The notes under the pieces: generated by a model
The model's database searches: none
Told to the model about the DNA's origin: nothing
What the model saw: only the letters and a program-made list of their open reading frames with translations
Translations under genes and position numbers: made by a program
Source: an uncultured Syntrophaceae bacterium
Lineage (GTDB): Bacteria > Desulfobacterota > BSN033 > UBA1163
DNA: 53,736 bases
Assembly: GCA_964517975.1 (NCBI GenBank)
Contig: CAZFDM010000301.1
Location: 1 to 53,736, forward strand
Direction: 5' to 3'
Shown: one piece after another, positions 1,090 to 28,143 of the stretch
Layout of the letters: each line of letters starts with the position of its first letter
Numbering within the stretch: the stretch's first letter is position 1

Positions 1090-1092
1090 CGA

Positions 1093-3631: not shown

Positions 3632-5685
3632 TAAGTATTCACCTCTCCTATTTTTTCTACTCGAACTGCCCCTACTTTTAACTCTGGAATCTTAGCAATT
3701 GGATCTAAGGCTGTATGGGTTAAAACGTTTGCTGCACTCTCTACAAAATGGAAAGGAATAAAGAGAACCCCTTGACTCACATTAAAGGTCAATCTGGCCT
3801 TAATCTCTATTTCTCCTCTCCGAGAGACCACCTTTACTTTCTCTCCTTCCTCAATCTTAAGTTGAAGGGCATCAAAGGGATTAATTTCGATATAGGCTTC
3901 CTCTGCTTCTTTTTGAAGAGATGGGGAGACTCCAGTCATTGTCCGTGTATGGTAGTGGAAACCAATTCTCCCTGTGGTAAGCCAAAAAGGAAACTCCTCA
4001 CTGACCTTCTCGGCCGGCTCCCTATACGGAATCGCGAAGAACGTCCCTTTCCCTTTTGAAAATTGATCTTGATGAAGAAATGTCGTTCCAGGGTCTTCTA
4101 AGGAACGACAGGGCCATTGGATTCCCTCCTCCTCAATTCTTTCATAAGTTATTCCCTGATAGATAGGGGTTAATCGAGTCATCTCTCGAAAGATTTCTTC
4201 TTCAGAAGCGTAATCAAAAAGATTGCTTCCCATCCTTTTCGCAATAGCAGCGATAATCTGATGATCTGGCTTTGCATCTCCTATGGGTACTATGGCTTTT
4301 CTGACCCTTTGAACCCTACGGTCCGTAGCCGTAAAAGTTCCCTCTTTCTCCGCAAAACTCACTCCAGGCAGAACAATATGGGCGAGCCTTGCTGTCTCGG
4401 TCAAAAAAATATCTTGAACCACTAAGAGTTCCAATTTCTTCAAAGCCTCCTCGACGTGATGGAGATCTGGATCACTTACCATTGGATTCTCACCCATGAT
4501 ATAAAGGGCTTTTAATTTCCCTTCCTCTATTCCCTGAAACATCTCTATGATAGTAAGTCCAGGTTTTCTCGAAAGGGAAGCCCTCCAGGCCTCTTCAAAC
4601 TTCTTTGCTATATTTTCATCCGAAACAGATTGATATCCCGTGTAAACATTAGGTAGTCCGCCCATATCACAGGCACCCTGGACATTATTTTGACCTCTTA
4701 AGGGATTTACCCCTGTTGAAAGCCTTCCAATATTTCCTGTCATCATCGCCAGGTTTGCCAGAGAGAGAACATTTTCGGTCCCTGTAATATGTTGAGTAAT
4801 CCCCATAGCGTAGACAATAGATCCTCTCTTTGCTTTGGCATATGCTTCAGCGATTGCTCTCAAATCCGATTTTGAAATCCCTGTAATCTCTTCTACTTTC
4901 TCTGGAGGATAATTTTCGAGCTCTTTTTTAAACTCTTCAAATCCTTCTGTCCTCTCTTTAATAAATTCCTTATTTTCCCATCCCTCTTTTAGAATGATAT
5001 GCATCAGACCATTGATCCAAGCAACATCCGTTCCTAACCTCTGTCTGACAAAGATATCCGAAAAGCGAGCGATTTGAGTTCTTCTGGGATCGATGACGAT
5101 GAGTTTAGCTCCCTTCTCCTTCGCTTTTAAAATACGTCTTGCAATGAGGGGATGAGCCTCTGTGGTATTGGAACCCGTAACAAGGATACAGTCAGAATCC
5201 TCTAATTCAGGTGTGGAATTGGTCATTGCTCCACTCCCAAATGATTTGGCTAGACCAGCCACAGTGGAAGAATGTCAGAGACGGGCACAATGATCCACAT
5301 TATTCGTTCCAATAACGGCCCTCACCCATTTTTGAAAAATATAGTTTTCTTCATTGGTACATCGAGCCGAAGTTAACCCTCCTATGCTATCTGGCCCATA
5401 CTCTTCTTTAATCTTTAGAATCCTCTTTGCCACTTCTTCAATGGCCTCTTCCCATGAGACTTCCTGAAATAAACCATTCTTCTTCATTAAGGGTTTTTTT
5501 AAACGGCCCTGATCATAAATAAATTGATGTGCATTCCATCCTTTAATACACAGACCACCCTCATTTATGATGTGGTCTTTTTGTGGAAGGACCCCTACAA
5601 TTTGACCATCCAATACCTCTAATAAAAGACCACAACCACATCCACAGTATGTGCAAGTAGTTAAAACGGTTTTATAAGTTAACAT
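3631..5685 (-). CDS. fdhA: Formate dehydrogenase alpha subunit, selenoprotein (U137), 684 aa
   Basis: CTYCGCGC...C Fe-S motif; DHCARL-UGA(5277-5275)-HSSTVAGL joins ORFs 5275..5685 and 3631..5262 in frame; RGQNNVQG motif. Confidence 0.94.
5247..5261 (-). promoter_or_regulatory. SECIS-like hairpin after fdhA U137
   Basis: TGGCT-GGTCT-AGCCA, same position and GGTCT apex as the E. coli fdhF SECIS. Confidence 0.8.
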
Positions 5686-5702
5686 AATCTCATCCCTAAA
5701 TT

Positions 5703-6512
5703 TTACTTTCCTGATTCAGATAGTTTATAACTCCCATCCCCTAAAAATTCTAATGGACCTCTCTCTTCTTCTTTTTCTCCTGGAATATAGCCAAAAAGGT
5801 CTCTTACTGTTTTCTTCACCTTTCGATAAAGTCTTCTCAGGGGGATTTCCATTGGACAGACTTCCTCACAAAGTCCACAATCGATACATCTGTCAGCCAT
5901 ATGAAAGGCTTTATGGAGATGAAAAATAGGAATTTCAGGAGGCATGCCCCCGGGTTTGATGAGGGAGCTATCTTCGAGAGTGCATGTAGGACAGAAACAC
6001 GCTGGGCATATATTTCGACATCCATAACATTTAATGCATTTGCCAAATTGGGACATCCAATAATGGAAGCGTTCCTCTTCAGAAAGGGTCTCTATCTCTT
6101 TGAGATCTGAGAAATCCTCTACAGGGTGGGCAATCCTTTCAGATTCTTCCAAATGGGTTGGAAAAGGCTTTTCACACCGACATCTATTGGCTAACTCTTG
6201 GCTACAGGGAATCCCAATAGGAATGACCTTCTCCCTTTGAAGTTGAAAATTTTTGAAAAGTTCAATAAGTGACCGTTCTTCACATCCACGAACCACAATC
6301 CCGAAAATTTGATCCGGATATCTTTTCGCAATCTTAATTAATATCTTTGTAAGTGGGTAACGAGTCTCTTCATTTGAAACCCATTCACCTATTTCTTCTG
6401 AGTTAGTGAAAAGAAAAGGAATGGGATGACCATGAAGCTTTCTCAGTCCCAATATCCCTGAAACCAATTTATCTTCAAGCATTTTTATCATTTTTGCTTT
6501 TGTTTTTTCCAT
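5703..6512 (-). CDS. FdhB/Flx-like 4Fe-4S dicluster protein
   Basis: CIKCYGCRNICPACFCPTC and CIDCGLCEEVCP, resembling the methanogen FdhB C-terminus; lies between mvhD and fdhA. Confidence 0.75.
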   Translation of the reverse strand: MEKTKAKMIKMLEDKLVSGILGLRKLHGHPIPFLFTNSEEIGEWVSNEETRYPLTKILIKIAKRYPDQIFGIVVRGCEERSLIELFKNFQLQREKVIPIGIPCSQELANRCRCEKPFPTHLEESERIAHPVEDFSDLKEIETLSEEERFHYWMSQFGKCIKCYGCRNICPACFCPTCTLEDSSLIKPGGMPPEIPIFHLHKAFHMADRCIDCGLCEEVCPMEIPLRRLYRKVKKTVRDLFGYIPGEKEEERGPLEFLGDGSYKLSESGK

Positions 6513-6989
6513 TTACAAAACCCTTGAATCCATCTTTTTTTTGAATGGGAGAATCCATTGAGTGGGTGCTTTCAATCTTAACGGAGAGGGACCGAGTTGA
6601 CAAATTTCTTGAGAGAACTCACTTACTACTTGTGCAAGTTTACTCCCTTCAGAAGTTGCAATCCACTCCAATCTTAAACGTTTTGGTGAAAGCCCAATGA
6701 ATTGAATAAGTTCTTTCATCACTGCTACTCTTTTGGCTGTTATGAAATTTCCTTTTCCATAATGGCATTCCCCAATATGGCATCCCGCAACCAACACCCC
6801 ATCCGCTCCCTCTTGAAAGGCTTTGAGGATAAAATGAGGAGAAACGCGTCCACTACACATTACTCTAATAGGTAAGACATTGGGGGCATATTTTAACCTC
6901 ATCGACCCGGCGAGGTCAGCTCCTGCATAGGCTCACCAGTGGCAATAAAAAGCAATAATAATCGGATTAAATTTAGATTCCTCGTTCAT
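6513..6989 (-). CDS. mvhD: MvhD/FlpD hydrogenase iron-sulfur (delta) subunit, selenoprotein (U19), 158 aa
   Basis: ATG 6989: MNEESKFNPIIIAFYCHW-UGA(6935-6933)-AYAGADLAGSMRLKY..., then RVMCSGRV and GCHIGECHY. Confidence 0.92.
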
Positions 6990-7088
6990 CTTTTTTCTCT
7001 AAAACTTTGTGAATTTTTTAATTTGGATGTCTCATTCCTAAATCAAATATCATCTTTTGTCAAGGGGAAAATAAGCCGTATTTTCTTA

Positions 7089-10062: not shown

Positions 10063-11463
10063 TTATTTATTCATCAAATATTCATGAATCGAATTGGCAG
10101 CCTTTCTTCCCGCACCCATGGCAAGGATGACGGTTGCCGAACCAGTGACAATATCACCGCCTGCCCAGACTCCTTCTTTGCTCGTCTTTCCCGTTTCTGG
10201 ATCAGCCACAATATATCCCCGCTTATTGAGGTCAAGACCTGGCGTAGTGGTCGTCAGAAGGGGATTGGCACCTGTACCAATGGCGACGACCGCTAAATCA
10301 CAATCCAATTGAAATTCAGAACCTTTAATGGGAACAGGTCTTCGTCTTCCTGACTCATCTGGCTCCCCTAACTCCATTTTAATACACTCAAATCCTGTGA
10401 CCCATCCATTGTCATCCCCAAAGAAACGAGTTGGCGCAGTCAGGAGATAGAATTGAACTCCCTCCTCCTCAGCATGATGGATCTCTTCAATCCTCGCAGG
10501 CATTTCCTCTCTTGATCTTCGGTAGACAATTCTTACTATGTCTGCTCCTAAACGGAGGGCAGTTCGAGCCGCATCCATGGCCACATTTCCTGCGCCAAAG
10601 ACGGCCACGTTCTTTCCCCGAGCAATGGGGGTATCGTATTCTGGAAAGAGATAGGCCTTCATTAAATTGGATCGGGTGAGATATTCGTTGGCTGAATAGA
10701 TTCCACAGAAGTTTTCTCCTGGAATTCCCAAAAACTGAGGAAGTCCTGCCCCCAACCCCAAGAAGACCGCATCATACTCCTGGAGAAGTTCATCGACAGT
10801 TTCAATTCTACCAATCACACAATTACATTCTACCTTGACTCCTAACTTTTCGAGGTAGTTGACCTCTGCCTGCACAATGGCCTTTGGAAGACGGAATTCT
10901 GGAATTCCATAGATCAACACACCTCCGGGTTTATGGAGGGCCTCAAAGATCGTTACCTCGTGGCCTTTAAGGATGAGGTCCCCTGCAACAGTCAACCCTG
11001 CAGGTCCTGAACCTACCACTGCTATCCTCTTACCCGTTGAGGGGGCTTTTGGGGGAATTGTGACTTCTCCTTTCTCCCTCTCCCAATCCGCAGCAAATCG
11101 TTCCAGTCTGCCAATGGCCACTGGCTGATCCTTCTTCCCAACCACGCAAAACTTTTCACATTGGTCCTCTTGAGGACAGACGCGACCACAGATCGCTGGA
11201 AGACTATTTCGCTCCTTCAATTTTCGGGCTGCGCCAACAAAATCTCCTTCATAGATAAGTTTAATAAAGGCAGGGATATCTATCTCTACCGGACATCCCT
11301 CAATACATTTTGGTTTTTTACATTGAAGGCAACGGCTTGCCTCCAGTTGAGCCACTTCGGGTGGATACCCGTAAGGGACTTCATTAAAATTTTTTGCCCT
11401 TGCCTTTGGATCCTGTTCGGGCATCTTCTGCCTTGGAATCTTCTTCTTTTCCTTTTCTGCCAT
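10063..11463 (-). CDS. nfnB: NfnB/SudA-type (GltD-like) large subunit of electron-bifurcating transhydrogenase
   Basis: RCLQCKKPKCIEGCPV, CGRVCPQEDQC, GSGPAG, GAGNVAMD, YRRS; downstream of nfnA. Confidence 0.88.
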   Translation of the reverse strand: MAEKEKKKIPRQKMPEQDPKARAKNFNEVPYGYPPEVAQLEASRCLQCKKPKCIEGCPVEIDIPAFIKLIYEGDFVGAARKLKERNSLPAICGRVCPQEDQCEKFCVVGKKDQPVAIGRLERFAADWEREKGEVTIPPKAPSTGKRIAVVGSGPAGLTVAGDLILKGHEVTIFEALHKPGGVLIYGIPEFRLPKAIVQAEVNYLEKLGVKVECNCVIGRIETVDELLQEYDAVFLGLGAGLPQFLGIPGENFCGIYSANEYLTRSNLMKAYLFPEYDTPIARGKNVAVFGAGNVAMDAARTALRLGADIVRIVYRRSREEMPARIEEIHHAEEEGVQFYLLTAPTRFFGDDNGWVTGFECIKMELGEPDESGRRRPVPIKGSEFQLDCDLAVVAIGTGANPLLTTTTPGLDLNKRGYIVADPETGKTSKEGVWAGGDIVTGSATVILAMGAGRKAANSIHEYLMNK

Positions 11464-11473
11464 TTTCCCCCCC

Positions 11474-12307
11474 TTATCTTAAGGACGCCATAAACCTGTC
11501 CATCGATACCTTCTCATCAGTAAGATAAGCCCTTTGCCGTTTTACCAACTCATCATAGTCGACCTCATGGCCATCGAATTCAGGGCCATCCACACAACAG
11601 AATCGGGTTCTCCCTCCAACGGTCACTCGGCAAGCGCCACACATCCCTGTGGCATCGACCATGATCGGGTTGAGACTCACCATCGTTTTTACCCCATACT
11701 CTTTGGTCATCTTGCATAAAAACTTCATCATGGGGACAGGGCCAATTCCAACGACCAATTTCACATCTTTTCTCTCATCCAGAATCTTCTTTAAGACATC
11801 GGTGACAAAGCCGTGAACCCCATAACTTCCGTCATCCGTTGTCACCCTCAGGTCATGGCTGGCTGCCTTCATCTCTTCTTCGAGGATGAGAAGGTCTTTG
11901 GTCCGAGCACCGATGATGGCAATGACATGATTGCCAGCCTCCTTGTAGGCTTTGGTGATCGGATACATCACGGCTACTCCTGTTCCACCGCCCACACAGA
12001 TGACCGTTCCAAGATTCTCGATATGGGTTGGACGGCCCAATGGTCCGATGATATCTGTAATAGAATCACCGACATTGAAGGTTCTTAAGAGAGCCGTTGT
12101 CTTTCCAACGACTTGAAAGATGATGTCGATCGTTCCAGCCACAGGATCTGTTCCTGCCATTGTCAATGGGATTCGTTCTCCTGTTTCGTTGGCTCGAAGG
12201 ACAATGAACTGTCCAGGCTTTGCCTTTCGAGCAATTTTTGGAGCTTCGACCCTGAAATGGCAAACCGTTTTTTCTGCCATCTCTCTTTTATAAATGATTT
12301 TATACAC
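11474..12307 (-). CDS. nfnA: NfnA/SudB-type FAD/[2Fe-2S] small subunit
   Basis: ERIPLT, GGGTG, MVDATGMCGACRV, CVDGPEF. Confidence 0.9.
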   Translation of the reverse strand: MYKIIYKREMAEKTVCHFRVEAPKIARKAKPGQFIVLRANETGERIPLTMAGTDPVAGTIDIIFQVVGKTTALLRTFNVGDSITDIIGPLGRPTHIENLGTVICVGGGTGVAVMYPITKAYKEAGNHVIAIIGARTKDLLILEEEMKAASHDLRVTTDDGSYGVHGFVTDVLKKILDERKDVKLVVGIGPVPMMKFLCKMTKEYGVKTMVSLNPIMVDATGMCGACRVTVGGRTRFCCVDGPEFDGHEVDYDELVKRQRAYLTDEKVSMDRFMASLR

Positions 12308-12900: not shown

Positions 12901-13254
12901 ATGATTGAATATCTTGCCATCCTCATCTATATATTAATCGCTGTTGCCTTTGCTATTTTCGCAATTTTAGCTTCCCATCTTTTAGGTCAAAGAAAGCCAT
13001 CTCCTCTTAAAGAAGAACCCTACGAATGTGGGATGACGACGGTTGGGTCGAGTTTTCGGAGGATACCCATAAAATATTACATCATTGCCATGCTCTTTTT
13101 GCTTTTTGATATTGAGGTGGTCTTTCTTTACCCCTGGGCTGTGGTCTTTAAAGAACTAAAAGTCTTTGCCTTTATTTCCATGGCAGTATTCATTGGTATC
13201 TTACTTATCGCCTACCTTTATATCTGGAAAAAAGGAGCCTTAGAATGGGAATAG
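12901..13254 (+). CDS. nuoA: NADH-quinone oxidoreductase subunit A
   Basis: [25 protein letters not shown]. Confidence 0.96.
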   Translation: MIEYLAILIYILIAVAFAIFAILASHLLGQRKPSPLKEEPYECGMTTVGSSFRRIPIKYYIIAMLFLLFDIEVVFLYPWAVVFKELKVFAFISMAVFIGILLIAYLYIWKKGALEWE

Positions 13255-13772
13255 AAACCTATCTTGAAAAAACCCCCCTCCTTCCTTATGTAGATAAACT
13301 TGTCAACTGGGGCCGGAAATACTCTATCTGGCCTGTCACCTTTGGCTTGGCTTGATGCGCCTTGGAGATGATGGTTGCCAGTATGGCGACCTGGGACATT
13401 GCTCGATTTGGTTCTGAGGTTTTCAGGCCCTCTCCAAGACAGGCAGACTTGATGATTGTTGCCGGGACATTGACCAAGAAGATGGCCCCTATGGTCAAGC
13501 GCATCTACGAACAGATGCCAGAACCTAAATGGGTCATTGCTTATGGAGCCTGTGCCTGTTCGGGTGGAATCTTCAAAACCTATAGCGTGGTGCAGGGAGT
13601 AGATCAGATCCTTCCTGTTGATTTTTATGTCCCAGGTTGCCCACCCAAACCTGAGGGACTGCTCGCTGCCTTAGTGAAACTCCAGAAGAAGATTGAAAAG
13701 GAATCGCTGGCCCATCGGAAGGATGTTCGGATTCCGTCCACCTTAGGAAGAGAAGAGGAGAGTCATGGTTGA
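13245..13772 (+). CDS. nuoB: NADH-quinone oxidoreductase subunit B with in-frame UGA at codon 37 (probable selenocysteine), 175 aa
   Basis: ATG 13245: ...[19 protein letters not shown](13353-13355)-CALEMM...SPRQAD...GACACSGG...PGCPP. Confidence 0.9.
13373..13391 (+). promoter_or_regulatory. SECIS-like hairpin after the nuoB UGA
   Basis: GGTTGCCA-GTA-TGGCGACC, 8-bp stem with one G:U, starting 17 nt after the UGA, G at the apex. Confidence 0.7.
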
Positions 13773-14253
13773 GAGCAACCTCGCTGTAAAGAAATTGAGA
13801 GAAAAGTTTTCGGATTCAATTTTAGAGATAAAGAATTTTCGGGATGAGACCACTGTGGTCATTGCAAAGAAAGATATTTTTGAAGTCTGTAAATTCCTCT
13901 CATCCGATCCAGATCTCCAATTCAATCTTCTTACCGATCTCTGCGGGGTAGACTTTCTTCCGGAAAAGCCTCGTTTCGAGATTGTTTACCATCTCTGTTC
14001 CCTTAAAAACAATCAGAGGTTAAGGATTAAAACAAGAGTTGAAGAGAACGAGACAGTGCCAAGTGTGGAGTCCGTTTGGAAGGTAGCCAACTGGTATGAG
14101 CGCGAAGTCTATGACCTGTTTGGGATTGTCTTTGAAAATCATCCAGATTTAAGAAGGATCCTCCTCTGGGATGGTTATCAAGGCCATCCTCTCAGAAAAG
14201 ATTATCCAACCGAAGGACCAGACTTTGATAAGCCCTTCGTTCCCGAGGTTTGA
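13765..14253 (+). CDS. nuoC: NADH-quinone oxidoreductase subunit C
   Basis: [33 protein letters not shown]. Confidence 0.96.
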
Positions 14254-14254
14254 A

Positions 14255-15427
14255 ATGGCAGAGAAAAGGTTGATGACCATCAATATGGGACCCCAACACC
14301 CCGCCACGCACGGGGTTTTGAGGGTCGTTTTGGAATTGGATGGAGAGGTCATCGTCAAGGCCACTCCCCATATCGGGCATTTGCACCGGGGCATCGAAAA
14401 ATTGGCTGAGAGTAGAACCTATCATCAATCCATTCCCTTCACTGATCGATTGGATTATACCAATGCCATGGGGAACAATCTGGCCTATGTTTTGGCCGTT
14501 GAGAAACTCTTAGGCATTGAGATTCCCAAACGGGCTCAATACCTAAGGGTGATGATGGCAGAACTACAGAGGATTGCTGCTCACCTGATCTGGTTGGGAA
14601 CACATGTATTAGATATTGGAGCGACCACCCCTATCTTCTATACCTTTAGGGAAAGGGAAGATATCCTGAGAATTTTTGAAGAGGTTGCAGGTGGAAGGCT
14701 CACCCCCACTTATCTAAGAATTGGTGGAGTAGCAAAGGACCTTCCAGAGGGAATTGATGAGGCCATTCGATCCTTTACCAAGATGTTTCCCGATCGGGTC
14801 AAGGAGTATGAGACCCTCCTGACACAGAATGTCATCTGGATGAAAAGGACTAAAGAAGTGGGGGTGATCTCCAAAGAGGATGCCATCAGTTGGGGGGTAA
14901 CGGGTCCAACCCTTCGAGGGTCGGGAGTGAAATATGATGTGAGAAGGGCCTTCCCTTATTCGAGTTATGAAGAGTTTGATTTTGAGATCCCCATTGGGTC
15001 GGTAGGGGACGTCTACGATCGATACATCGTTCGCCTGAGGGAGATGGAGTGGTCAAACTCCATTGTGAGGCAAGCCATGGAACGTCTGCCCAAAGGGCCT
15101 ATTCTGGCAGATGATCCGAGGGTTGTCCTTCCACCCAAAGAGAGGGTGCTTCAGGATATCGATGCCCTGATCCGACATTTCAAGATTGTTTCCGAGGGCT
15201 TCCGACCTCCTAAGGGTGAGGTCTATGCAAGCGTAGAGGCATCCAAAGGAGAGTTGGGGTTCTATATCGTCAGTGATGGGTCAAACAAGCCCTATCGGTT
15301 CAGGATTAGAACTCCCTCCTTTGCCAATTTGAGTGCCCTTCCTAAGATGATCGAAGGGAGTTTGATTGCAGATGTGATCTCCACGATTGGAAGCATTGAT
15401 ATCGTTCTGGGAGAAATTGATCGTTAG
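14255..15427 (+). CDS. nuoD: NADH-quinone oxidoreductase subunit D
   Basis: NMGPQHPATHGVLR, HRGIEK, RLDY, DIVLGEIDR; start reassigned to ATG 14255 just after the nuoC stop. Confidence 0.95.
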   Translation: MAEKRLMTINMGPQHPATHGVLRVVLELDGEVIVKATPHIGHLHRGIEKLAESRTYHQSIPFTDRLDYTNAMGNNLAYVLAVEKLLGIEIPKRAQYLRVMMAELQRIAAHLIWLGTHVLDIGATTPIFYTFREREDILRIFEEVAGGRLTPTYLRIGGVAKDLPEGIDEAIRSFTKMFPDRVKEYETLLTQNVIWMKRTKEVGVISKEDAISWGVTGPTLRGSGVKYDVRRAFPYSSYEEFDFEIPIGSVGDVYDRYIVRLREMEWSNSIVRQAMERLPKGPILADDPRVVLPPKERVLQDIDALIRHFKIVSEGFRPPKGEVYASVEASKGELGFYIVSDGSNKPYRFRIRTPSFANLSALPKMIEGSLIADVISTIGSIDIVLGEIDR

Positions 15428-15548: not shown

Positions 15549-17501
15549 ATGACGGACATTTTTTTTAGCAGTTGGGGTGGGGTGGTTACGGATAATCGAG
15601 GAAAACTCGAGTCAGAAAGAGCGCCCATGACCAACCTTTCTCTGCCAGTGGAATTTGACCAGGATAAAAAGATTAGAGCCTTTATTGGCTGGGATGGAAT
15701 TGCCATTAGAGATCCTGAAGTCAGTATCATCGATCTGATTCGAGCCTATGTGGAGGCAGTCCAGAAGGAGTCCTGTGGGAAGTGTACCCCCTGCCGTGTT
15801 GGAACCCGTATCATGTTGACCATCCTAAATCGGATCTCAGAAGGTCAGGGAGAGATGGAGGATCTGGATAAACTAAAATATCTGGGAGAGATGATTCTCC
15901 GAAGCTCAAAGTGTAATCTTGGTCAGACAGGGCCAAGACCAGTTCTGGATGCCCTCGAATATTTTAAGACCCAGTTCATCGATGCCATCCAATCAAAAAG
16001 AAGAGTTCCCCATGGAGACTATAAAATCAAAGTAACCGCACCTTGCGTAAGTGCTTGCCCCTCTCATCTTCCCATTTATGATTACATCGAATTAATTAAA
16101 GAAGGAAGGTTTCTTGAATCCCTCGAGGCCATCCGCAATGCCACTTGCCTTCCTGGGATTCTCGGAAGGGTCTGTATCCGGCCCTGCGAATCTAACTGCA
16201 GAAGAGGAAATGTGGATGAATGTCTCTCCATTAAATGGCTGAAGCGTTTTGTCGCAGACTATGAGATAGAAAAGAGAAGAGTCCCATCGGTCCATCAAAG
16301 GGGAACCCGTTCTGAAAAGGTGGCCATCATTGGGGCTGGGCCTGCAGGCCTGAGCTGTGCTTACTATCTTGCCCTTAAAGGTTATCCAGTAACCATCTTT
16401 GAAAGATTGGGGGAACCAGGAGGCATGGCAGCCATGGGGATACCGGATTATAGGCTTCCAAGAAATATCGTGAGGTACGAAACGGAACTTATCGAACGTT
16501 TGGGGGTTGAGATTCGGTATAATACCCAAGTAGGAAAAGACATCACCCTTTCTCAGATCTTCGAACAGGGGTATAAGGCGATCTTCATCGGAGTGGGTGC
16601 TCAGACCAATACACCCATGGGCGTTGAAGGAGAGGATAAAGGATATAAAGGGTTTATCCCAGGAGTTTATTATCTCTTAGAGATCAATATGGGGAGGGAT
16701 CCCTACCCAGAGGGGAAGAGGGTTGTGGTGGTAGGAGGAGGAAATGTGGCCATTGATTGTGTGCGATCCTCCTTCCGCCTTGGGAAACCTGATGTGAATC
16801 TCGTTTACCGTCGGACAAGAAAAGAGATGCCTGCAGACCCTGTGGAAGTCCACGATGCAGAGGAAGAAGGGGTGAAATTCCATTATCTCTGCAATCCTGT
16901 TCGAATCGTGGAGAAAGAAGGAAAGGTCGTTGGGGTTGAATGTATCCGAATGGAACTTGGGGAGCCGGATGAGAGTGGAAGGCGAAGGCCTGTTCCTATT
17001 AAGGGGTCAGAATTCTTCATCGAGACCGATATCTTGATTCCAGCGATCGGTCAGGCCATTGACCTCTCCTTCCTCGATGAGAAGGATGGAATAAAGACGA
17101 CCAAGCGCTCTACTATTGCGGTTCAAGAGGGGACCTTTCTCACGAGCCGTCCAGGGGTTTTCTCTGCAGGAGACTGTGTGACAGGGCCTGATGTCCTGGT
17201 TCGGGCTGCAGGCAACGGGAAGAGGGCAGCGGAGAAGATTGACCTCTTCCTTCGAGGGATGGAGGTAAAGGAATCTGAGGAGGAGCGGTTAGAATCGTTG
17301 ATGGAAAAGATCAAGGTCTACAATAAAGAGGAGAAGGTTGGGATCTCTGGTGGAACAAAGAGAGAGATGTTGAAAATGCTTCCGCCAGAGACAAGAAAGT
17401 GGACTTTTGAAGAGGTGGAGAAAGGATTTTCCATCCCCCAGGCCCAAAAAGAGGCAGAACGTTGTCTTCGATGTGTCCGGATTGGACTCTTTGCAGTGTG
17501 A
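15549..17501 (+). CDS. sfrB: SfrB-like NADPH oxidoreductase (NuoF-type 4Fe-4S domain plus GltD-like flavoprotein)
   Basis: FSSWG...AFIGWDG N-terminus resembles Geobacter SfrB; ESCGKCTPCRVG, CPSH, GAGPAG, GGGNVAIDC, YRRT, AERCLRC. Confidence 0.8.
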   Translation: MTDIFFSSWGGVVTDNRGKLESERAPMTNLSLPVEFDQDKKIRAFIGWDGIAIRDPEVSIIDLIRAYVEAVQKESCGKCTPCRVGTRIMLTILNRISEGQGEMEDLDKLKYLGEMILRSSKCNLGQTGPRPVLDALEYFKTQFIDAIQSKRRVPHGDYKIKVTAPCVSACPSHLPIYDYIELIKEGRFLESLEAIRNATCLPGILGRVCIRPCESNCRRGNVDECLSIKWLKRFVADYEIEKRRVPSVHQRGTRSEKVAIIGAGPAGLSCAYYLALKGYPVTIFERLGEPGGMAAMGIPDYRLPRNIVRYETELIERLGVEIRYNTQVGKDITLSQIFEQGYKAIFIGVGAQTNTPMGVEGEDKGYKGFIPGVYYLLEINMGRDPYPEGKRVVVVGGGNVAIDCVRSSFRLGKPDVNLVYRRTRKEMPADPVEVHDAEEEGVKFHYLCNPVRIVEKEGKVVGVECIRMELGEPDESGRRRPVPIKGSEFFIETDILIPAIGQAIDLSFLDEKDGIKTTKRSTIAVQEGTFLTSRPGVFSAGDCVTGPDVLVRAAGNGKRAAEKIDLFLRGMEVKESEEERLESLMEKIKVYNKEEKVGISGGTKREMLKMLPPETRKWTFEEVEKGFSIPQAQKEAERCLRCVRIGLFAV

Positions 17502-17572
17502 TAGGTTGAGGAGTCTTAAAGGAGTATCCTGAATCGCGAGTCACGACTCACGGAACACGAGGTTTGATTAGA

Positions 17573-20197
17573 ATGATTAAACTGACGATTGATGGGAAAG
17601 AGTTAACTGGGAAGCCAGAACAGACGATTCTGGAGGTAGCCAGAGAGAATGGGATTTACATCCCTACCCTCTGTTATCACGAAAAGTTGAGCCTCATCAA
17701 ATCCTGTCGAATCTGCCTTGTTGAGGTAGAGGGAGCAGAGATGCCGATGGCCTCCTGTGCCACCCCTATCTACGATGGGATGGTGGTGCACACCAAAACG
17801 GAAAGAGTGGAGGGGATGCGAAGAGAGGCCTTGCGGTTATTGCTGGTCAATCACCCCCTTGATTGCCCAGTGTGTGATGCAGGAGGAGAATGTCTCCTTC
17901 AAAATCGGACTTATGAATTCGGGATTGATCGCCAGGAGTTTTTCACTGAAAAGATTGAACGTCCCTCCTTTGAATATGGAACTCCCCTTATTCGACAATG
18001 GCCAGACCGGTGTGTGATGTGCCTTCGTTGCGTTCATGCCTGTATTGATATCCCTGGATCGGATGTTTTGGATGTCGTGGACAATGGCTACTCCTCTCAG
18101 ATTAAAGCAGTTCGAAAGGAGAACTGCATTTCCTGTGGAGAATGCCTTCATGTCTGTCCAGTGGGTGCGCTTACGGAGAACCTCAGTCGGATTAAGGGGA
18201 GAGTATGGCAGTTAGGAAGGGTGCAGACGACCTGTACGTTCTGTGGGTGTGGGTGCCAATTAGAACTCAATACCCTCGGCCAGAGAAAAGTGGTCAAGGT
18301 CACCACTCATAGCGAACCAGGTATCAACCGAGGAAGCCTCTGTGTAAAAGGGAGGTTTGGTTATGACTTCATTCATCATCCGGATCGCCTTAAGAAGCCT
18401 TTGATGAGGAGTGGAGAGGGTTTTGTTGAAGTCTCATGGGAAGAGGCCCTCAACGTTGTGGCTGATAAACTCCAAGAGATAAAACAGAAAGAGGGCCCTG
18501 AAAGCATTGGAGGAATCTCCTCCTCAAGGGCCACCAATGAGGAGAACTACCTATTTCAGAAATGGATGAGGGCCTGTATCGGGACTAATCATATTGACAA
18601 CGGAGTAAGGCTTTCGAGCATTTCCTCTTTTTACGGAATGATGACCTCCATAGGCTCTGTAGGAATGACCCATTCCATGGAAGCGGTCACCAAGGCTGAC
18701 CTCATTCTCATCATTGGAGCGGATGTGGATGATGACCATCTCATCTTTGGCAATAAGATGAGAGAGGCGATGCGAAAGAACGGAGCCAAGATCATTCTGA
18801 TCGATCCTCGAAGAACCTCTTGGGAGAAGTGGGCGGATCTCTGGTTAAGACCTAACCCTAAGACAGACCTATTTCTGATCAATGGTCTGATTCGCCATTT
18901 GATTGAGGCGAAGTCCTATAAAAATGAGTATGTTCTTTCTAAGACGGAAGGTTTCGAGTCCCTTAAATCTTCGTTAGATCGGTTCACCGATGAGTTGGTT
19001 CAGAAGATTTCAGGGGTTTCTTCTGCAGAGTTAAAGTCCTTATTTGACCTTTATCGATCGGCTCATCGGAGGGCGATTGTTTTTGGCTCAGGTGTGGCTC
19101 AACATGCTAATGGGAAAGAAACTGTTCAGGCTCTTTGCAACCTTGCCCTTTTAACAGGAGAAGTGGAGAAGGAGGGAGGGGGACTCTATCCACTCCTTTC
19201 CCAGAATAATGCCCAGGGAGCCTGCGATATGGGTGGACTTTCTGAATTCCTTCCTGGGTATAAAAGGGTGGAGGATGGAGAGGCAAGGAAAAGATTCCAA
19301 GAGGTCTGGAAGGCAGAGATCCCTACAACCCCTGGTTCTACTTATTTAGAGCTTTTTGATCTGATTTTAGAAGGAAGAATCAAAGCCCTCTATGTCTTTG
19401 GTGAAGACCCCCTGCTCACCCTTCCCAATGTCGAAAAGGTTAAAGAATCCCTGAAACAATTGGAGCTCTTAGTGGTCCAGGATATGTTCATGACTGAAAT
19501 CGGGAACTATGCCCATGTGATTCTCCCAGGGGCGAGCTTTGCAGAGAAGGATGGAACCTTCACCAATATGGAAAGAAGGGTTCAAAGGGTGAGGAAGGCT
19601 ATTTTCCCCATAGGGGAGGCCCGAGTGGACTGGAAAATTCTCTGTGATCTCTCCATACGGATGGGATACCTTATGGATTATCAGAACTCCGCTGAGATTA
19701 TGGAGGAGATAGCCGCTCTCATTCCTATTTACTCTAACATGACATACCCCAATCTTGAAAAGGGTGGGGTCCAATGGCTTCCTCTCAATGAGATGAAAAA
19801 GAGATTTATCCCTGTTGAGTATAAAGAACCCTTAGAGAAACCGGATGCCCAGTATCCCTTTTGGATCATTCCAAGGGGATTTCATTATCACTATGGGATC
19901 GGAACGACGACCAAGAGGGCGGAAGGGTTGGCCAAAGTGTTTCGTGATACTTGCATTGAGGTTCACCCAGAGGATGCAAAAGAATCAGGACTTTCGGAAG
20001 GTGACAAAGTGAGAGTGATTTCTCCAAGGGGTGAAGTTGAGACGGTCTGTCGAATTTCTCAAGATCTTCCCAAAGGGGTTGCCTATTTGGCTACCACATT
20101 CTTTCCTGTGTTGATTAACAATCTCTTAGTTCCTAAAGGCGATTCCATCGGTCAGCCTGAATATAAACTTTTCGTGGGGAGGATTGAAAAAAGGTAG
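17573..20197 (+). CDS. sfrA: SfrA/NuoG-like Fe-S protein with molybdopterin-oxidoreductase fold
   Basis: IPTLC..CRIC..C, HPLDCPVCDAGGEC, two 4Fe-4S motifs, CTFCGCGC; Fdh active-site position reads DNGVRLSS (no Cys/Sec); alternative TTG start at 17564. Confidence 0.75.
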   Translation: MIKLTIDGKELTGKPEQTILEVARENGIYIPTLCYHEKLSLIKSCRICLVEVEGAEMPMASCATPIYDGMVVHTKTERVEGMRREALRLLLVNHPLDCPVCDAGGECLLQNRTYEFGIDRQEFFTEKIERPSFEYGTPLIRQWPDRCVMCLRCVHACIDIPGSDVLDVVDNGYSSQIKAVRKENCISCGECLHVCPVGALTENLSRIKGRVWQLGRVQTTCTFCGCGCQLELNTLGQRKVVKVTTHSEPGINRGSLCVKGRFGYDFIHHPDRLKKPLMRSGEGFVEVSWEEALNVVADKLQEIKQKEGPESIGGISSSRATNEENYLFQKWMRACIGTNHIDNGVRLSSISSFYGMMTSIGSVGMTHSMEAVTKADLILIIGADVDDDHLIFGNKMREAMRKNGAKIILIDPRRTSWEKWADLWLRPNPKTDLFLINGLIRHLIEAKSYKNEYVLSKTEGFESLKSSLDRFTDELVQKISGVSSAELKSLFDLYRSAHRRAIVFGSGVAQHANGKETVQALCNLALLTGEVEKEGGGLYPLLSQNNAQGACDMGGLSEFLPGYKRVEDGEARKRFQEVWKAEIPTTPGSTYLELFDLILEGRIKALYVFGEDPLLTLPNVEKVKESLKQLELLVVQDMFMTEIGNYAHVILPGASFAEKDGTFTNMERRVQRVRKAIFPIGEARVDWKILCDLSIRMGYLMDYQNSAEIMEEIAALIPIYSNMTYPNLEKGGVQWLPLNEMKKRFIPVEYKEPLEKPDAQYPFWIIPRGFHYHYGIGTTTKRAEGLAKVFRDTCIEVHPEDAKESGLSEGDKVRVISPRGEVETVCRISQDLPKGVAYLATTFFPVLINNLLVPKGDSIGQPEYKLFVGRIEKR

Positions 20198-20244: not shown

Positions 20245-21264
20245 ATGGAGTTGTTATATCTTCTCATCGAAATCGTGATTAAATGTGTTGTGGTTTTTGC
20301 CTGCCTGATGATCTGTGTGGCCTATCTTACCTGGCTTGAACGGAAGGTTTTGGGCCATATCCAGATTCGTTTTGGGCCAAATCGCTGTGGTCCCTTTGGA
20401 TTGCTTCAGCCCTTTTCAGACGCCATCAAGGCCTTCTTTAAGGAAGACCTTATTCCTGCAAGGGCGGATAAGACGGTCTTCGTCCTTGCTCCGATGATCG
20501 CCATCATCTCAGCCATTAGCCTCTTTGCGGTGATTCCCTTTGGAAATCAGTTTACCATTCCAGGAACGAATTGGGTGGTTAAACTCCGATTGGCCGATGT
20601 AGATATCGGTCTTCTCTATGTCTTTGCCTTTGCCACTCTTGGAGAGTATGGAATCATCTTGGGAGGCTGGGCCTCAGGAAATAAGTATGGACTGACGGGG
20701 TCTCTTCGAGCCGCCGCCCAGATGATTAGTTATGAGGTCTCCCTTGGTCTTTCCATCATTGGGGTGATCATTCTTTCTCAGAGTTTAAGACTCACAGAGA
20801 TTGTCAATCTCCAAGGTGGGGGTTTCTGGAATTGGAATGTCTGGTATCAACCTCTGGCCTTTATCCTTTATATTATATGCGGTCTGGCAGAGATTAATCG
20901 GACGCCATTTGATATGCCCGAGGCTGAATCGGAATTGGCCTGCGGGTTCAACATCGAATATAGCAGTATGAAGTTTGCTCTCTTCTTTATGGCTGAATAT
21001 GCTCATATGATCACCATGGGTGCTGTGGCAGTAACGCTCTTTTGGGGAGGATGGCAGCCTCCTCTCCCTCAACTGGGTTTCATCCCAGGGGTGATCTGGT
21101 TTTGCATCAAATTGTTCGTTTTCGTCTTCTTCTTTATCTGGCAGAGAGGAACCTTTCCAAGACTCCGATACGATCAGATCATGAAGCTTGGCTGGAAGGT
21201 TTTGCTTCCCTTAACTCTTATTAATTTATTGATTACAGGATTCGTTGTCTCACTAAAGGGGTAA
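20245..21264 (+). CDS. nuoH: NADH-quinone oxidoreductase subunit H
   Basis: ERKVLG..Q.R.GPN, QMISYE, PFDMPEAESEL, PRLRYDQ. Confidence 0.96.
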   Translation: MELLYLLIEIVIKCVVVFACLMICVAYLTWLERKVLGHIQIRFGPNRCGPFGLLQPFSDAIKAFFKEDLIPARADKTVFVLAPMIAIISAISLFAVIPFGNQFTIPGTNWVVKLRLADVDIGLLYVFAFATLGEYGIILGGWASGNKYGLTGSLRAAAQMISYEVSLGLSIIGVIILSQSLRLTEIVNLQGGGFWNWNVWYQPLAFILYIICGLAEINRTPFDMPEAESELACGFNIEYSSMKFALFFMAEYAHMITMGAVAVTLFWGGWQPPLPQLGFIPGVIWFCIKLFVFVFFFIWQRGTFPRLRYDQIMKLGWKVLLPLTLINLLITGFVVSLKG

Positions 21265-21267
21265 AAG

Positions 21268-21681
21268 ATGATCATTCCATTATTAAAAGGATTGGGGTTG
21301 ACGCTTTCGAGGTTCTTCTCCAAACCCATCACCATTCAATATCCGGAAGAGAAATTACTCCCTGGAAAAAGGTGGAGGGGAATTCAGTATTTTGAAATGG
21401 ATGAGAAGGGAAAAACAAAGTGCGTGGCCTGTGGCCTCTGCATGGCGGTCTGCCCTTCTCAGTGTATTTATATAGAGACCGCCGAGGATGAACAGGGGAA
21501 TCGATATCCCCTCACCTATGAACTGGATGCATCCCGTTGTATCTTTTGTGGCTTTTGTGAAGAGGCCTGTCCGGTGAAGGCCATATTCTTAGGAAAGAAC
21601 TATGAATGGGTGGAGGGGGATCGAGGGGCCTATCGGATGACGACAGAGAGGCTTTTAGAGGAGAAAAAATTAAATCCCTAA
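21268..21681 (+). CDS. nuoI: NADH-quinone oxidoreductase subunit I
   Basis: TIQYPEE, CVACGLCMAVCP, CIFCGFCEEACP. Confidence 0.95.
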   Translation: MIIPLLKGLGLTLSRFFSKPITIQYPEEKLLPGKRWRGIQYFEMDEKGKTKCVACGLCMAVCPSQCIYIETAEDEQGNRYPLTYELDASRCIFCGFCEEACPVKAIFLGKNYEWVEGDRGAYRMTTERLLEEKKLNP

Positions 21682-21848
21682 TCCCTTAAGTATTTCGTTA
21701 GAAAGGAGAAGGGCTAAGGTAAAGAGGCCCGTAGGGTTATTGGGTTACCTTTTAGGTCTTAACGCATTGAACCTTTTTTGACTTCTAACGTTAGCCGAAA
21801 CGGGCTGCGTAACCGGTGAATGGAAGACAATATTGAGGTAAATGAAAG

Positions 21849-22376
21849 ATGGCTGAAAATATAGGAAACCTATTTCAATGGTTAGTCTTTTTGGGGGCGG
21901 GATTTCTCTCTATTCTTGCCTCGATTCTTGTCATCACCAGGAAGAATCCGATCCACAGTGCCCTCTTTATGGTCCTGACTTTCCTTTGTGTGGCAGTGCT
22001 CTATCTATTGCTCCACAGTCAGTTTATTGCCATCATTCAGGTCGTCGTCTATGCAGGGGCAATCGTCATGTTGATCGTCTTTGTCATCATGCTCCTTGAC
22101 CTGGAGGAAGAACTTCGGAGAGGGCTAAAAATCGTCTATTCAAAAGTGGTTGGGAGTTTTTTGGCCCTCCTTTTTCTGCTTGGAATTCTTTATTCGGTGG
22201 TTGCCAAATCACCCACAGGGAAATTGGGTGTTTATACCTTGGATAAGATGAAAACCAGTACAAAGACGTTTGGTGAAGTCCTCTTTACCCAGTATCTCTT
22301 CCCATTTGAGGTGGTCTCTATACTCCTGGTAGCCGCCATCATTGGGGCTGTGGTGCTAAGTAAAAGGAGAAAATAA
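21849..22376 (+). CDS. nuoJ: NADH-quinone oxidoreductase subunit J
   Basis: [25 protein letters not shown]. Confidence 0.95.
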
Positions 22377-22387
22377 GGAGAAGATTT

Positions 22388-22705
22388 ATGTGGACTGTTC
22401 CAACTATTCCTCCTGAGTTATATCTCGTATTAAGTGGAATCCTTTTTACAATTGGTGTGATTGGGGCCTTGACACGCCGAAATGCTATTGTGGTCTTCAT
22501 GTCCATCGAATTGATGTTAAATGCGGTCAACCTCAGTTTTATCACCTTCTCCCGTTTTCTCCAATCGATGGATGGGGTGGTCTTTGCCTTTTTTGTGATG
22601 GCCGTAGCAGCGGCTGAGGCGGCGGTGGGGTTAGCCATCTTTGTCATGCTCTATCGCTCGAGGGAAACCATCAATGTGGACGAAGTCAACATCTTAAAGT
22701 GGTAA
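22388..22705 (+). CDS. nuoK: NADH-quinone oxidoreductase subunit K
   Basis: [20 protein letters not shown]. Confidence 0.96.
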
Positions 22706-22770
22706 GTTCGGAGTTCAGAGTTCGGAGTTTAACATTAAATGCTCCAAACTCCGAACGAATTACTCCGAAC
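22706..22770. repeat. Intergenic inverted heptamer array (nuoK-nuoL)
   Basis: GTTCGGA-GTTCAGA-GTTCGGA ... CTCCAAA-CTCCGAA-CGAATTA-CTCCGAAC. Confidence 0.75.
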
Positions 22771-22790
22771 GGATACAAGGGGAGTTTTTC

Positions 22791-24779
22791 ATGTTCGACT
22801 ATGTTTGGTTAGTTCCTGCTTTTCCAGCCATCGGATTTTTACTGAATGGTCTTTTGGGGAGACGATATAGCAAGAAGGTCGTCGGTTGGGTGGCCTGTTC
22901 AGCACTGGGTCTCTCCTTTCTCACTTCCATCCTTATCTTCTTTGCGCTCATCGGAAGGCCACCCACTGAACGATTTTATGAAAAGGTGATCTTCGACTGG
23001 GTGGTCTCAGGTTCTTTCCAGACCGTGATCGGATACCAGATCGATCCTCTTTCTATTCTCATGGCGCTGGTGGTCACGGGAGTGAGTTTCTTCATCCACA
23101 TCTATTCCGTTGGATATATGCATGACGACCCAGGCTACCCACGTTATTTTACCTATCTCAATCTCTTTGTCTTCATGATGCTTAACCTTGTCCTTGCCAA
23201 TAATTTCCTTCTGATGTTTGTAGGATGGGAAGGAGTAGGGCTCTGTTCCTACCTGTTGATTGGGTTCTGGTTTGAAAAGGACTCTGCGGCGAATGCAGGG
23301 AAGAAGGCCTTTGTGGTGAACCGTGTAGGGGACTTTGGGTTTATCCTTGGAATGTTCCTTCTCTTTACCAGCCTTGGTCAAAAGGGAATCTGGACCCTCG
23401 ATTTCACAGAGGTCTTTCAGAATGCTCATCTTCTCGATCCTACCACCGTCACCCTCATCACCATCCTTCTCTTTATTGGAGCCTGCGGCAAATCCGCCCA
23501 GATTCCACTCTATGTTTGGCTTCCGGATGCTATGGAAGGACCTACTCCGGTCAGTTCTCTCATCCATGCTGCCACCATGGTGACCGCAGGGGTTTATATG
23601 ATCGCCCGGTGCAATGTGCTTTACAGCATGGCACCTATCTCCATGGCCATTGTAGCGATTGTGGGTGTGGCCACCGCCATCTACACCGCCTCGATTGGAT
23701 TTTGCCAGAACGATATTAAGAAGGTATTAGCCTATTCGACAATCAGCCAGTTGGGTTATATGTTCTTAGGAGTAGGGGTTGGAGCCTTCAGCGCTGGAAT
23801 CTTTCACCTGATGACCCATGCCTTTTTCAAAGGGCTCCTCTTCCTTGGAGCAGGCAGTGTCATGCATGCCCTGAGTGGGGAACTGGATATGAGGAAGATG
23901 GGAGCGCTAAGGACAAAGATTCCCATCACCTTCTGGACCTTCTTCATTGCTACCCTGGCTATTGCAGGGATTCCCGGGCTTTCAGGATTTTTTAGCAAGG
24001 ATGAGATCCTCTGGCAAGCATTCTCAAGTTCCCATGGTCATTTCTTACTCTGGCTGGTCGCGGCAGTGGCTGCTGGGATGACCGCCTTCTATATGTTCAG
24101 AGCCCTGTTTTTGACCTTCTTTGGGGAGTCAAGGGTTGATCCTCATGTAGCACACCATATCCATGAATCTCCTAAGATCATGACCATTCCTCTCATTATC
24201 CTCGCTATTCTCTCTGTCATCGGAGGATACGTGGGTGTTCCCCATGTCTTAGGAGGAGCCAATCATATCCATGAATTTCTGGCCCCTGTTTTAGGAGGAG
24301 GGGAACCTGCCAAGGCCCATTCAGCCATCACTCTTCTTTCCCAAGCCTGGGCCTCGGGAGGAGAGGGAGTAGGTCATTCTGCTGCGTTGGAACTTCTCAT
24401 GATGGTGGTTTCAGTCATCATTGCCCTGATTGGAATTGGAATCGCCTACCTCTTCTATATCAAAAACCCAGAACTTCCAAAACAGTTGGCTGAGAGGTGG
24501 AAGAGGTTATATACCCTAATCTACAACAAGTACTATGTGGATGAGATTTATGAAGTTCTCTTTGTCAACTCCTTAAAGGGCTTAGGCACAGGCCTCTGGA
24601 GGGGTTTTGATGACTTTGTGATCGATGGAACGGTCAATGGCATTGCTTATCTTATTGGGTTAATTTCAAGGGTGATGAGAAGGATGCAGACTGGGTTTGT
24701 TCAGAACTATGCCTTTTCGATGATCCTTGGCGCTGTGATTATCGCAGGATATTACCTTGTGCGTGCCATTTTCTATTAG
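22791..24779 (+). CDS. nuoL: NADH-quinone oxidoreductase subunit L
   Basis: GWEGVG, GKSAQIPL..WLPDAMEGPTPVS, HAFFK. Confidence 0.96.
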   Translation: MFDYVWLVPAFPAIGFLLNGLLGRRYSKKVVGWVACSALGLSFLTSILIFFALIGRPPTERFYEKVIFDWVVSGSFQTVIGYQIDPLSILMALVVTGVSFFIHIYSVGYMHDDPGYPRYFTYLNLFVFMMLNLVLANNFLLMFVGWEGVGLCSYLLIGFWFEKDSAANAGKKAFVVNRVGDFGFILGMFLLFTSLGQKGIWTLDFTEVFQNAHLLDPTTVTLITILLFIGACGKSAQIPLYVWLPDAMEGPTPVSSLIHAATMVTAGVYMIARCNVLYSMAPISMAIVAIVGVATAIYTASIGFCQNDIKKVLAYSTISQLGYMFLGVGVGAFSAGIFHLMTHAFFKGLLFLGAGSVMHALSGELDMRKMGALRTKIPITFWTFFIATLAIAGIPGLSGFFSKDEILWQAFSSSHGHFLLWLVAAVAAGMTAFYMFRALFLTFFGESRVDPHVAHHIHESPKIMTIPLIILAILSVIGGYVGVPHVLGGANHIHEFLAPVLGGGEPAKAHSAITLLSQAWASGGEGVGHSAALELLMMVVSVIIALIGIGIAYLFYIKNPELPKQLAERWKRLYTLIYNKYYVDEIYEVLFVNSLKGLGTGLWRGFDDFVIDGTVNGIAYLIGLISRVMRRMQTGFVQNYAFSMILGAVIIAGYYLVRAIFY

Positions 24780-24830
24780 AGGGTTTAACACGAATTACGG
24801 AAACGATTTGATAAAAAAGGAGTCGGTTTC

Positions 24831-26456: not shown

Positions 26457-26473
26457 TATCCGGAGGATATTGA

Positions 26474-28028: not shown

Positions 28029-28143
28029 ATGAAAGGTGTGTATGCTGAAAGCAGAAAAAATAAACCAGATGCTGATATCATGAAAACGCTGTTCCTCCAA
28101 ATAGTGTAGAATATATCTTAAAACTCGAAAGGAGGAACGGAAA

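Follow-up and report, generated by a model that had tools for sequence, protein, structure and literature searches.

In-frame UGA at the first N2-ligand codon of nuoB points to selenocysteine in complex I of anaerobic bacteria

In complex I of Yarrowia, the iron–sulfur (Fe–S) cluster N2 is ligated by the tandem cysteines C85 and C86 together with C150 and C180; according to the available part of the source, the tandem pair is strained, and C85 is the more mobile of the two and adjoins the quinone-binding tyrosine (PMC8042128). The same text ties the tandem-cysteine ligation of N2 to its high, pH-dependent potential and strained geometry (PMC8042128), and a second study, available in part, describes a cysteine detached from N2 in peripheral-arm crystals soaked with reduced nicotinamide adenine dinucleotide (NADH), and not in the intact enzyme (PMC7434922). 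Here we describe nuoB in a 53,736-nucleotide (nt) stretch of DNA (the window; contig CAZFDM010000301.1, positions 1 to 53,736, of assembly GCA_964517975.1) from an uncultured Syntrophaceae bacterium. Its product shows full-length homology to NuoB/Nqo6/NDUFS7 (PSST), is encoded in a nuoA–N operon and retains the three other N2 cysteines, but UGA stands in place of a codon for the first cysteine of the tandem pair. The nuoB of this complex-I-type operon is very probably a selenoprotein gene, its product carrying selenocysteine (Sec, U) as a ligand of N2.

Replacement of a metal-ligating cysteine (Cys) by Sec has its nearest parallel in the [NiFeSe] hydrogenases, which belong to the same superfamily as the NuoB/NuoD pair. 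In these enzymes the Sec sits in the large subunit, the homolog of NuoD, whereas the Sec of the window would occupy an Fe–S cluster ligand position in the homolog of the small subunit. The NuoB of the window matches hydrogenase small-subunit models weakly, among them NF045520, ‘NiFeSe hydrogenase small subunit’. A 2026 review of the prokaryotic selenoproteome, in its available part, gives Sec as a ligand of Ni in [NiFeSe] hydrogenases and lists HdrA and MvhD/VhuD as selenoprotein families (PMC13188914). HdrA and MvhD/VhuD are, like NuoB here, Fe–S proteins of anaerobes in which Sec and Cys alternate, and they are encoded in the same window with hairpins at a like spacing; they differ in being soluble electron-bifurcation proteins outside any membrane respiratory complex.

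No paper that connects Sec with NuoB or complex I came up in full-text searches, with subscription journals outside their scope. Neither ‘Nuo’ nor ‘PF01058’ nor ‘quinone oxidoreductase’ appears in the available text of the 2026 review, family table included, and its one ‘NADH’ entry there is subunit E, PF02508 (PMC13188914). In the portions available, NuoB is listed neither in the GOS survey nor in the Olavius symbiont paper nor in the 2016 ISME J survey, the supplementary family lists of the last being outside the scope. Similarly, the available text of the BSepDB paper (the contents of BSepDB itself being outside the scope), of the 2021 dual-code-expansion paper and of a 2022 preprint on eight new families (bioRxiv 10.1101/2022.07.06.499078) mentions neither NADH nor Nuo nor quinone, and Sec-containing NuoB was not met in the available parts of PMC5109826, PMC5736913, PMC2398784, PMC5029168, PMC1976440, PMC13326102 and PMC8318568. 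An earlier reading of this DNA from its letters alone (the sequence-only reading) had placed NuoB outside the classic selenoprotein families, and the published family lists searched, in their available parts, bear this out. Sec-NuoB is apparently genuine and undescribed, although an earlier report may exist beyond the literature searched.

The nuoB gene lies at 13245–13772 on the forward strand and comprises 175 codons plus a terminal TGA stop (13770–13772) when the sole internal stop of its frame, the TGA at 13353–13355 (codon 37), is read as Sec. This codon stands in the context GGC TTG GCT TGA TGC, or G-L-A-U-C, and the product would read MGIETYLEK...TFGLA-U-CALEMM... over 175 residues. The start codon, ATG 13245, overlaps the 3′ end of nuoA (12901–13254, forward strand; PF00507, 127.9 bits), and a Shine–Dalgarno-like AAGGAG, read from the sequence at 13232–13237 of the same strand, precedes it by 7 nt. 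A plain list of open reading frames (ORFs) gives nuoB as 13362–13772 only (136 amino acids from a TTG start), with 39 N-terminal residues lost, and the public gene call of a close relative (P0085, 133 amino acids, starting MVASMATWD) is likewise cut off at the UGA. The sequence-only reading had described the altered GLACC motif, the overlap with nuoA, the missing 39 residues and intact NuoB on both flanks of the TGA, and each of these observations holds, the last through coding constraint on either side of the codon and through profile matches of the full frame above cut-off (TIGR01957, 232.2 bits against 142.7; NF005012, 240.6 against 116). Among the matches of this NuoB in NCBIfam release 20 there is no Sec-specific NuoB model. 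The assembly holds one nuoB only.

Alignment with solved structures places the UGA at a defined ligand of N2. In phmmer searches the protein matches Thermus thermophilus Nqo6 at 220.8 bits and E. coli NuoB at 201.2 bits; residues 12–114 correspond without gaps to Nqo6 residues 20–122 (offset +8), and residues 7–154 align with residues 33–180 of the E. coli protein. By this alignment U37 is the equivalent of Nqo6 Cys45 and of E. coli NuoB Cys63, the first of two adjacent cysteines, and the N2 ligand positions U37, C38, C103 and C132 correspond to Nqo6 45, 46, 111 and 140. The residue at the U37-equivalent position is Cys in 41 of the 41 solved relatives matched by phmmer.

The recurrence of TGA at codon 37 is the decisive result. 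The first 30 orthologs from relatives carry TGA at this codon in 16 cases and TGC/TGT in 14, and among 90 fetched orthologs the codon is TGA in 45 and Cys in 45, such that every non-TGA form (45/45) is a Cys form. At the level of the class, 57 nuoB orthologs recovered from 68 species-level genomes divide into 30 Sec and 27 Cys forms. On a DNA tree built from nuoB and its flanks with the codon masked, this distribution takes at least nine Sec/Cys changes, at least six of which are forced by well-supported branches. From 401 evenly sampled genomes of the phylum, the best 150 matches listed were inspected for internal TGA; 26 had one, and in 24 the TGA stands at codon 37, spread over seven families (f1, f2, f13, f15, f49, f61 and f62); Sec-type nuoB is thus present in at least 24 of the 401 sampled genomes. 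The internal TGAs of G183 and G348 are off site, with TGC at codon 37, and the second TGA of G150 is its natural stop; these were set aside. When the same pattern was shifted to the second tandem cysteine, TGA was found in 0 of the 401 phylum genomes, which argues that selenium use is specific to the first tandem position.

A wider view comes from a scan of bacteria and archaea, one genome per species, for the DNA pattern W-P-x-x-F-G-L-A-TGA-C-A, which at least 119 stretches matched. Of the 119 matches listed, 118 are frames of nuoB that carry U at the site, followed by about 120–140 NuoB residues; the other, L146, is a chance match outside nuoB. Neighbouring genes were examined for the first 80 pattern loci, and the 79 genuine matches there all adjoin nuoA and/or nuoC/nuoD; the last 39 (L190–L228) were assessed by ORF and codon. 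Scan loci and the ortholog set may share genomes; when distinct 120-nt segments are counted, the 163 loci comprise 134 Sec forms. Carriers belong mostly to Nitrospirota/Thermodesulfovibrionales and Thermodesulfobacteriota (‘Deltaproteobacteria’, Syntrophaceae), with three further loci in Chloroflexota (L118, L162, L198) and one in a Candidatus Udaeobacter (L182). Thermodesulfatator autotrophicus S606 (L202) is the one cultured strain among the matches listed. Sec-NuoB is found in over a hundred anaerobe genomes.

Some assemblies hold more than one nuoB. G068 has two orthologs on separate contigs, the Sec-type L077 and the Cys-type L076, which has an in-frame TAG at codon 18 and could be a decaying copy or belong to a second strain in the bin (contamination 8%). 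Two separate Sec-type loci occur in each of three assemblies (L155/L185, L145/L221 and L118/L198), and the gene order at L155 is unusual, with nuoB followed by nuoD, nuoI, nuoA, nuoC and nuoH.

The distribution of the codon bears directly on two simpler explanations. Under translation table 11 the TGA is a plain in-frame stop, as expected had a nonsense mutation left a nuoB pseudogene in a decaying operon, and the sequence-only reading had taken a TGA confined to this genome as the sign of such a mutation. The check that it proposed, a search of Desulfobacterota genomes for the same codon, finds TGA recurrent there with Cys in sister genomes, in seven families of the phylum, and the scan of bacteria and archaea shows it at no fewer than 118 loci (118 of the 119 pattern matches listed). 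This recurrence across at least seven phylum families already refutes the pseudogene, and the other nuo genes are intact, the gene is the sole nuoB of the genome and both flanks of the codon are under coding constraint; as such, decay of the gene is highly improbable. The other explanation is a sequencing or assembly error for TGC or TGT, and the source assembly is indeed fragmented (305 contigs, 92.7% complete). However, the same codon stands in independent assemblies of many organisms, and contigs from three other runs of other studies (X3, X4, X5) span it without any difference at 13353–13355, though they deviate from the window nearby, at 13349, 13352 or 13364. This evidence consists of contigs, not raw reads, and run X7 is without cover at 13305–13346 and has almost none at the codon. 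The TGC/TGT error that the sequence-only reading had allowed for therefore finds no place at contig level, where independent runs retain the TGA, and we regard it as extremely improbable.

The codons upstream of the UGA are read in the same frame as those behind it. None of the 134 distinct Sec forms has a stop in the 24 codons upstream, where variation falls mostly on third positions (0.317, 0.138 and 0.562 pairwise differences per site at codon positions 1, 2 and 3) and conservation extends over the motif NW.R..S.WP.TFGLA. Because this upstream segment is constrained in frame and a restart behind the UGA would delete both tandem ligands, read-through of the UGA appears to be required. Termination at the UGA followed by restart at TTG 13362 or ATG 13365/13368, or a stop serving as a throttle on NuoB, is accordingly very unlikely. 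Start-type codons do lie just past the UGA, and public gene calls of this kind, such as P0085, exist, but restart would yield a 36-residue peptide and a truncated NuoB in which both tandem cysteines are lost and N2 is left with two ligands, and the 24 upstream codons are constrained in the UGA frame. In addition, only a GGAG that overlaps the start precedes 13362–13368, whereas AAGGAG precedes 13245, and the Cys forms run through this site uninterrupted.

A hairpin of the kind expected for a selenocysteine insertion sequence (SECIS) follows the codon. It lies at 13373–13391 on the forward strand, has an 8-base-pair stem and a GUA loop, and its loop centre is 30 nt from the U of the UGA. In the DNA, GGTTGCCA-GTA-TGGCGACC begins 18 nt past the TGA and spans about 18–37 nt downstream; in the RNA the element is GGUUGCCA-GUA-UGGCGACC, with GGUUGCCA and UGGCGACC as the stem arms. 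The arrangement resembles SECIS-dependent recoding as in E. coli fdhF, where a stem-loop with a G in its apical loop lies in the coding sequence, no more than a few tens of nucleotides past the in-frame UGA; the sequence-only reading had likened the hairpin itself to the fdhF SECIS. The loop of the window hairpin is (A)GUA(U), and loops in other lineages are AGUUC, GGA, CGGGA and AGGU; the hairpin of the window's own FdhA gene is of the GGUC type, unlike those of nuoB. A hairpin of −4.1 kcal/mol or lower is present in 106 of 106 distinct Sec forms, with the loop centre 26–32.5 nt from the U of the UGA. Its sequence differs from lineage to lineage and includes (C/G)GUCACC-AGUUC-GGCGAC(G/C), GGCUACU-AGUUUR-AGUAGYU, UGACGA-CGGGA-UCGUCA, GGCUGCU-GGA-AGCAGCC and GGCYGCA-GGU-GC(G)AGCC, besides others. 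The hairpin that the sequence-only reading had noted at SECIS spacing is thus found again, and relatives carry compensatory changes in its stem.

These changes were counted on the largest register group, which holds 47 of the 106 distinct Sec forms in 37 distinct rows. Pair 21–39 is G-C in 25, C-G in 7, A-U in 1 and U-A in 1, so that a codon AUG, AUC, AUA or AUU changes in step with the third position of a Thr codon, and pair 24–36 is C-G in 17, U-A in 11 and U-G in 6. Within the group 86% of cells are paired, and every slid register scored lower. In a shuffle test the observed value was reached in 0 of 500 shuffles for four of five measures, figures of a kind that relatedness inflates. Comparison of Sec with Cys forms points the same way: the mean number of stem pairs kept, out of seven, is 5.98 in Sec forms (n = 47) and 3.73 in Cys forms (n = 45). 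Where the encoded peptide is the identical VTSSAT, stem-breaking synonymous changes occur in 0 of 17 Sec forms versus 4 of 8 Cys forms (Fisher p = 0.0055, uncorrected for relatedness), as relaxed constraint after a switch from Sec to Cys predicts. When the energy is restricted to hairpins at the proper position, the medians are −7.2 kcal/mol for Sec and −5.9 kcal/mol for Cys forms (p = 1.2e-4). We relied on this restricted energy, on covariation and on the peptide contrast because plain folding energy failed to separate the two classes.

The genome encodes part of the apparatus for Sec insertion. Its tRNA-Sec scores 80 bits against a cut-off of 47 and is alone among the 40 tRNAs found in the genome by ARAGORN in having a UCA anticodon (within the window it detected none), and selA (622.8 bits) lies 2 kb from it. 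Five of five tested TGA-carrying relatives, one of the same genus included, have SelB above cut-off and SelD, and the SelD of these five itself carries a TGA. Across the class, 63 of 68 genomes have selB, those with Sec-type and those with Cys-type NuoB alike. The expectation of the sequence-only reading that sel genes accompany the TGA holds for tRNA-Sec and selA in this genome and for selB and selD in relatives, and fails for selB and selD in its own assembly, where searches gave paralog-level matches only (EF-Tu, IF2 and EF-G-like proteins; AIR-synthase-family proteins). Two AIR-synthase-family proteins encoded in the window, at 37447–38457 (reverse strand) and 52686–53684 (forward strand), match PF00586 and PF02769 and were rejected as SelD (about 62–66 bits against a cut-off of 125). 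The gene at 37447–38457 has an in-frame TGA 13 codons upstream.

The same window shows the organism using Sec elsewhere. On the reverse strand at 208–6998, a cluster hdrC-hdrB-hdrA-fdhA-(Fe–S protein)-mvhD contains four in-frame UGAs: one in FdhA (5275–5277, CARL-U-HSS), two in HdrA (3599–3601, VCH-U-G, and 3050–3052, CSA-U-IL) and one in MvhD (6933–6935, CHW-U-A), all at motifs that we take to be established sites of Sec. A hairpin lies behind every one of the four, its loop centre at 24–30 nt from the UGA. The number agrees with the four other Sec-type UGAs counted in the sequence-only reading. The TGA that separates hdrC from hdrB is a normal stop.

These data also speak to the identity of the residue inserted. 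The UGA might be recoded to something other than Sec, either Cys through a UCA-reading tRNA or Trp or Gly through near-cognate decoding, with the hairpin merely slowing termination. Such recoding would accord with a hairpin that is short and of unexceptional plain folding energy and with selB and selD unfound in the assembly, and the recoding itself is known from nucleotide data only. Against it, the sole UCA-anticodon tRNA found is a bona fide tRNA-Sec at 80 bits, which counts against the tRNA-Cys alternative raised in the sequence-only reading; the residue in sister genomes is always Cys, the signature of Sec/Cys exchange; SelB and SelD are present in carriers; and UGA is also decoded in FdhA, HdrA and MvhD of the same genomes. 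Insertion of a residue other than Sec is for these reasons unlikely, and Sec is the residue we infer at codon 37.

Several results weigh against Sec in NuoB. The hairpin register varies by lineage (pair sums 52 to 65) with no single consensus, so that one consensus structure for all lineages was rejected, and half of the register-60 forms have an A·C mismatch at pair 25–35. The plain minimum free energy of the downstream 42 nt does not distinguish 106 Sec from 45 Cys forms (medians −10.2 versus −9.4 kcal/mol, p = 0.42), z-scores against synonymous-codon shuffles do not separate them either (p = 0.067), and such shuffles are beaten at p ≤ 0.05 by 14% of Sec and 11% of Cys forms. The hairpin is retained in some Cys forms, with seven of seven pairs in L022 and six of seven in L034 and L036, and an Rfam search of the window at gathering thresholds gave 0 matches. 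In the window's own assembly, searches for selB with TIGR00475, with PF09107 (the wing domain) and by tblastn from the SelB of a same-genus relative did not find it, and those for selD with TIGR00476 and by tblastn from the protein of relatives did not either. Finally, the case for Sec-NuoB is made at the level of DNA sequence.

Two of these points have a ready reading. Other Cys forms with the same peptide as L022, L034 and L036 have lost pairs, and the division between hairpin-keeping and hairpin-losing Cys forms looks like one between recent and older switches from Sec to Cys. Likewise, we read the missing selB and selD as an assembly gap rather than absence. The codon itself, its recurrence with Cys alternates, the coding constraint on both sides, the covarying hairpin and the use of Sec by the organism are direct observations, and the proposal of the sequence-only reading that nuoB encodes Sec gains support from TGA recurrence, hairpin covariation, tRNA-Sec with selA, and the independent contigs.

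The operon around nuoB is otherwise complete in frame. Its order on the forward strand is nuoA, nuoB, nuoC (13765–14253), nuoD (14255–15427, with an inferred start), a gene for a 650-amino-acid protein (15549–17501), a gene for an 877-amino-acid NuoG-like protein (17564–20197) and nuoH, I, J, K, L, M and N (20245–27925, all open). Internal stops are absent from all 12 other genes, in keeping with the sequence-only reading, which had called them intact. Neither NuoE nor a flavin mononucleotide-type NuoF is encoded among these genes. The 650-amino-acid protein joins the 4Fe-4S (N3-type) domain of NuoF to a GltD/NfnB-like pyridine-nucleotide-disulphide oxidoreductase, and the NuoG-like protein carries a full molybdopterin domain. 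In comparison with described complex I, the NuoE/F module for NADH input is thus replaced by a flavoprotein combining the NuoF C-terminal and GltD-like parts, which suggests that the input module of this complex is non-NADH or linked to the phosphorylated dinucleotide (NADPH).

The complex I operons of other Sec-NuoB carriers are 14-subunit-like or 11-subunit-like, and their types vary: some have D-E?-F-G-H-like spacing, some have nuoD directly before nuoH and some are of the GltD-like type of the window. Since operon types differ among carriers, the trait is independent of any one input module. The GltD-like/NuoG-like arrangement also follows nuoD at many related loci with Sec-type nuoB, among them L117, L120, L122, L141 and L164. 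A gene pair that adjoins the nuo operon on its upstream side and is transcribed divergently, at 10063–12307 on the reverse strand, encodes an NfnB-like protein (GltD-type, 466 amino acids) and an NfnA-like protein (FNR-type with an Fe–S domain, 277 amino acids). Directly past nuoN, on the opposite strand, is a 417-amino-acid ORF at 28078–29331 without a Pfam match.

With Sec at codon 37, expression would proceed as follows. Translation would initiate at 13245, the mRNA hairpin at 13373–13391 would recruit SelB and Sec-tRNA(Sec), and these would read UGA 13353–13355 as Sec. The product would be full-length NuoB in which a selenolate takes the place of the first tandem cysteine's thiolate on the [4Fe-4S] cluster N2, the terminal cluster that would hand electrons to quinone, so that Sec37 is a predicted N2 ligand. 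A selenolate has a lower pKa than a thiolate, forms a longer bond and is a softer donor. Because of these properties Sec may alter the potential, proton coupling, strain or oxidation resistance of N2: the strain of the tandem pair could be relieved, the midpoint potential or its pH dependence shifted, reversible detachment made easier, or irreversible oxidation resisted. Frequent switches between Sec and Cys, together with SelB in every class genome with enough data, suggest a benefit that is modest and condition-dependent, not a strict requirement. The sequence-only reading had suggested that Se ligation could retune the potential or reversibility of N2. A tentative idea, which we regard as possible and rather doubtful, is that N2 selenium adaptively retunes the complex I coupling site. 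In such retuning a mobile, quinone-facing selenolate would alter the potential and redox-Bohr behaviour of N2, or dissociate and rebind more readily, and would allow anaerobes and thermophiles to run the enzyme efficiently, perhaps reversibly, on donors other than NADH and with quinones of low potential.

The recoding mechanism proposed here is standard; its target, the quinone-reducing cluster of complex I, is new and surprising. Since gene callers truncate such nuoB genes, as in P0085, the complex I of these lineages may be mistaken for a broken one. At least nine switches in one class supply natural matched Sec/Cys pairs of near-identical enzymes in which the role of the ligand can be tested, and the cultured, non-pathogenic carrier T. 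autotrophicus S606 is open to electron paramagnetic resonance and 77Se spectroscopy, electrochemistry and structure determination. Were the retuning proposal true, it would bring the first case in nature of a respiratory-chain [4Fe-4S] cluster ligated by a selenolate and, with it, a built-in 77Se probe for the step from N2 to quinone. If Sec in NuoB is confirmed, a core respiratory enzyme joins the selenoproteome.

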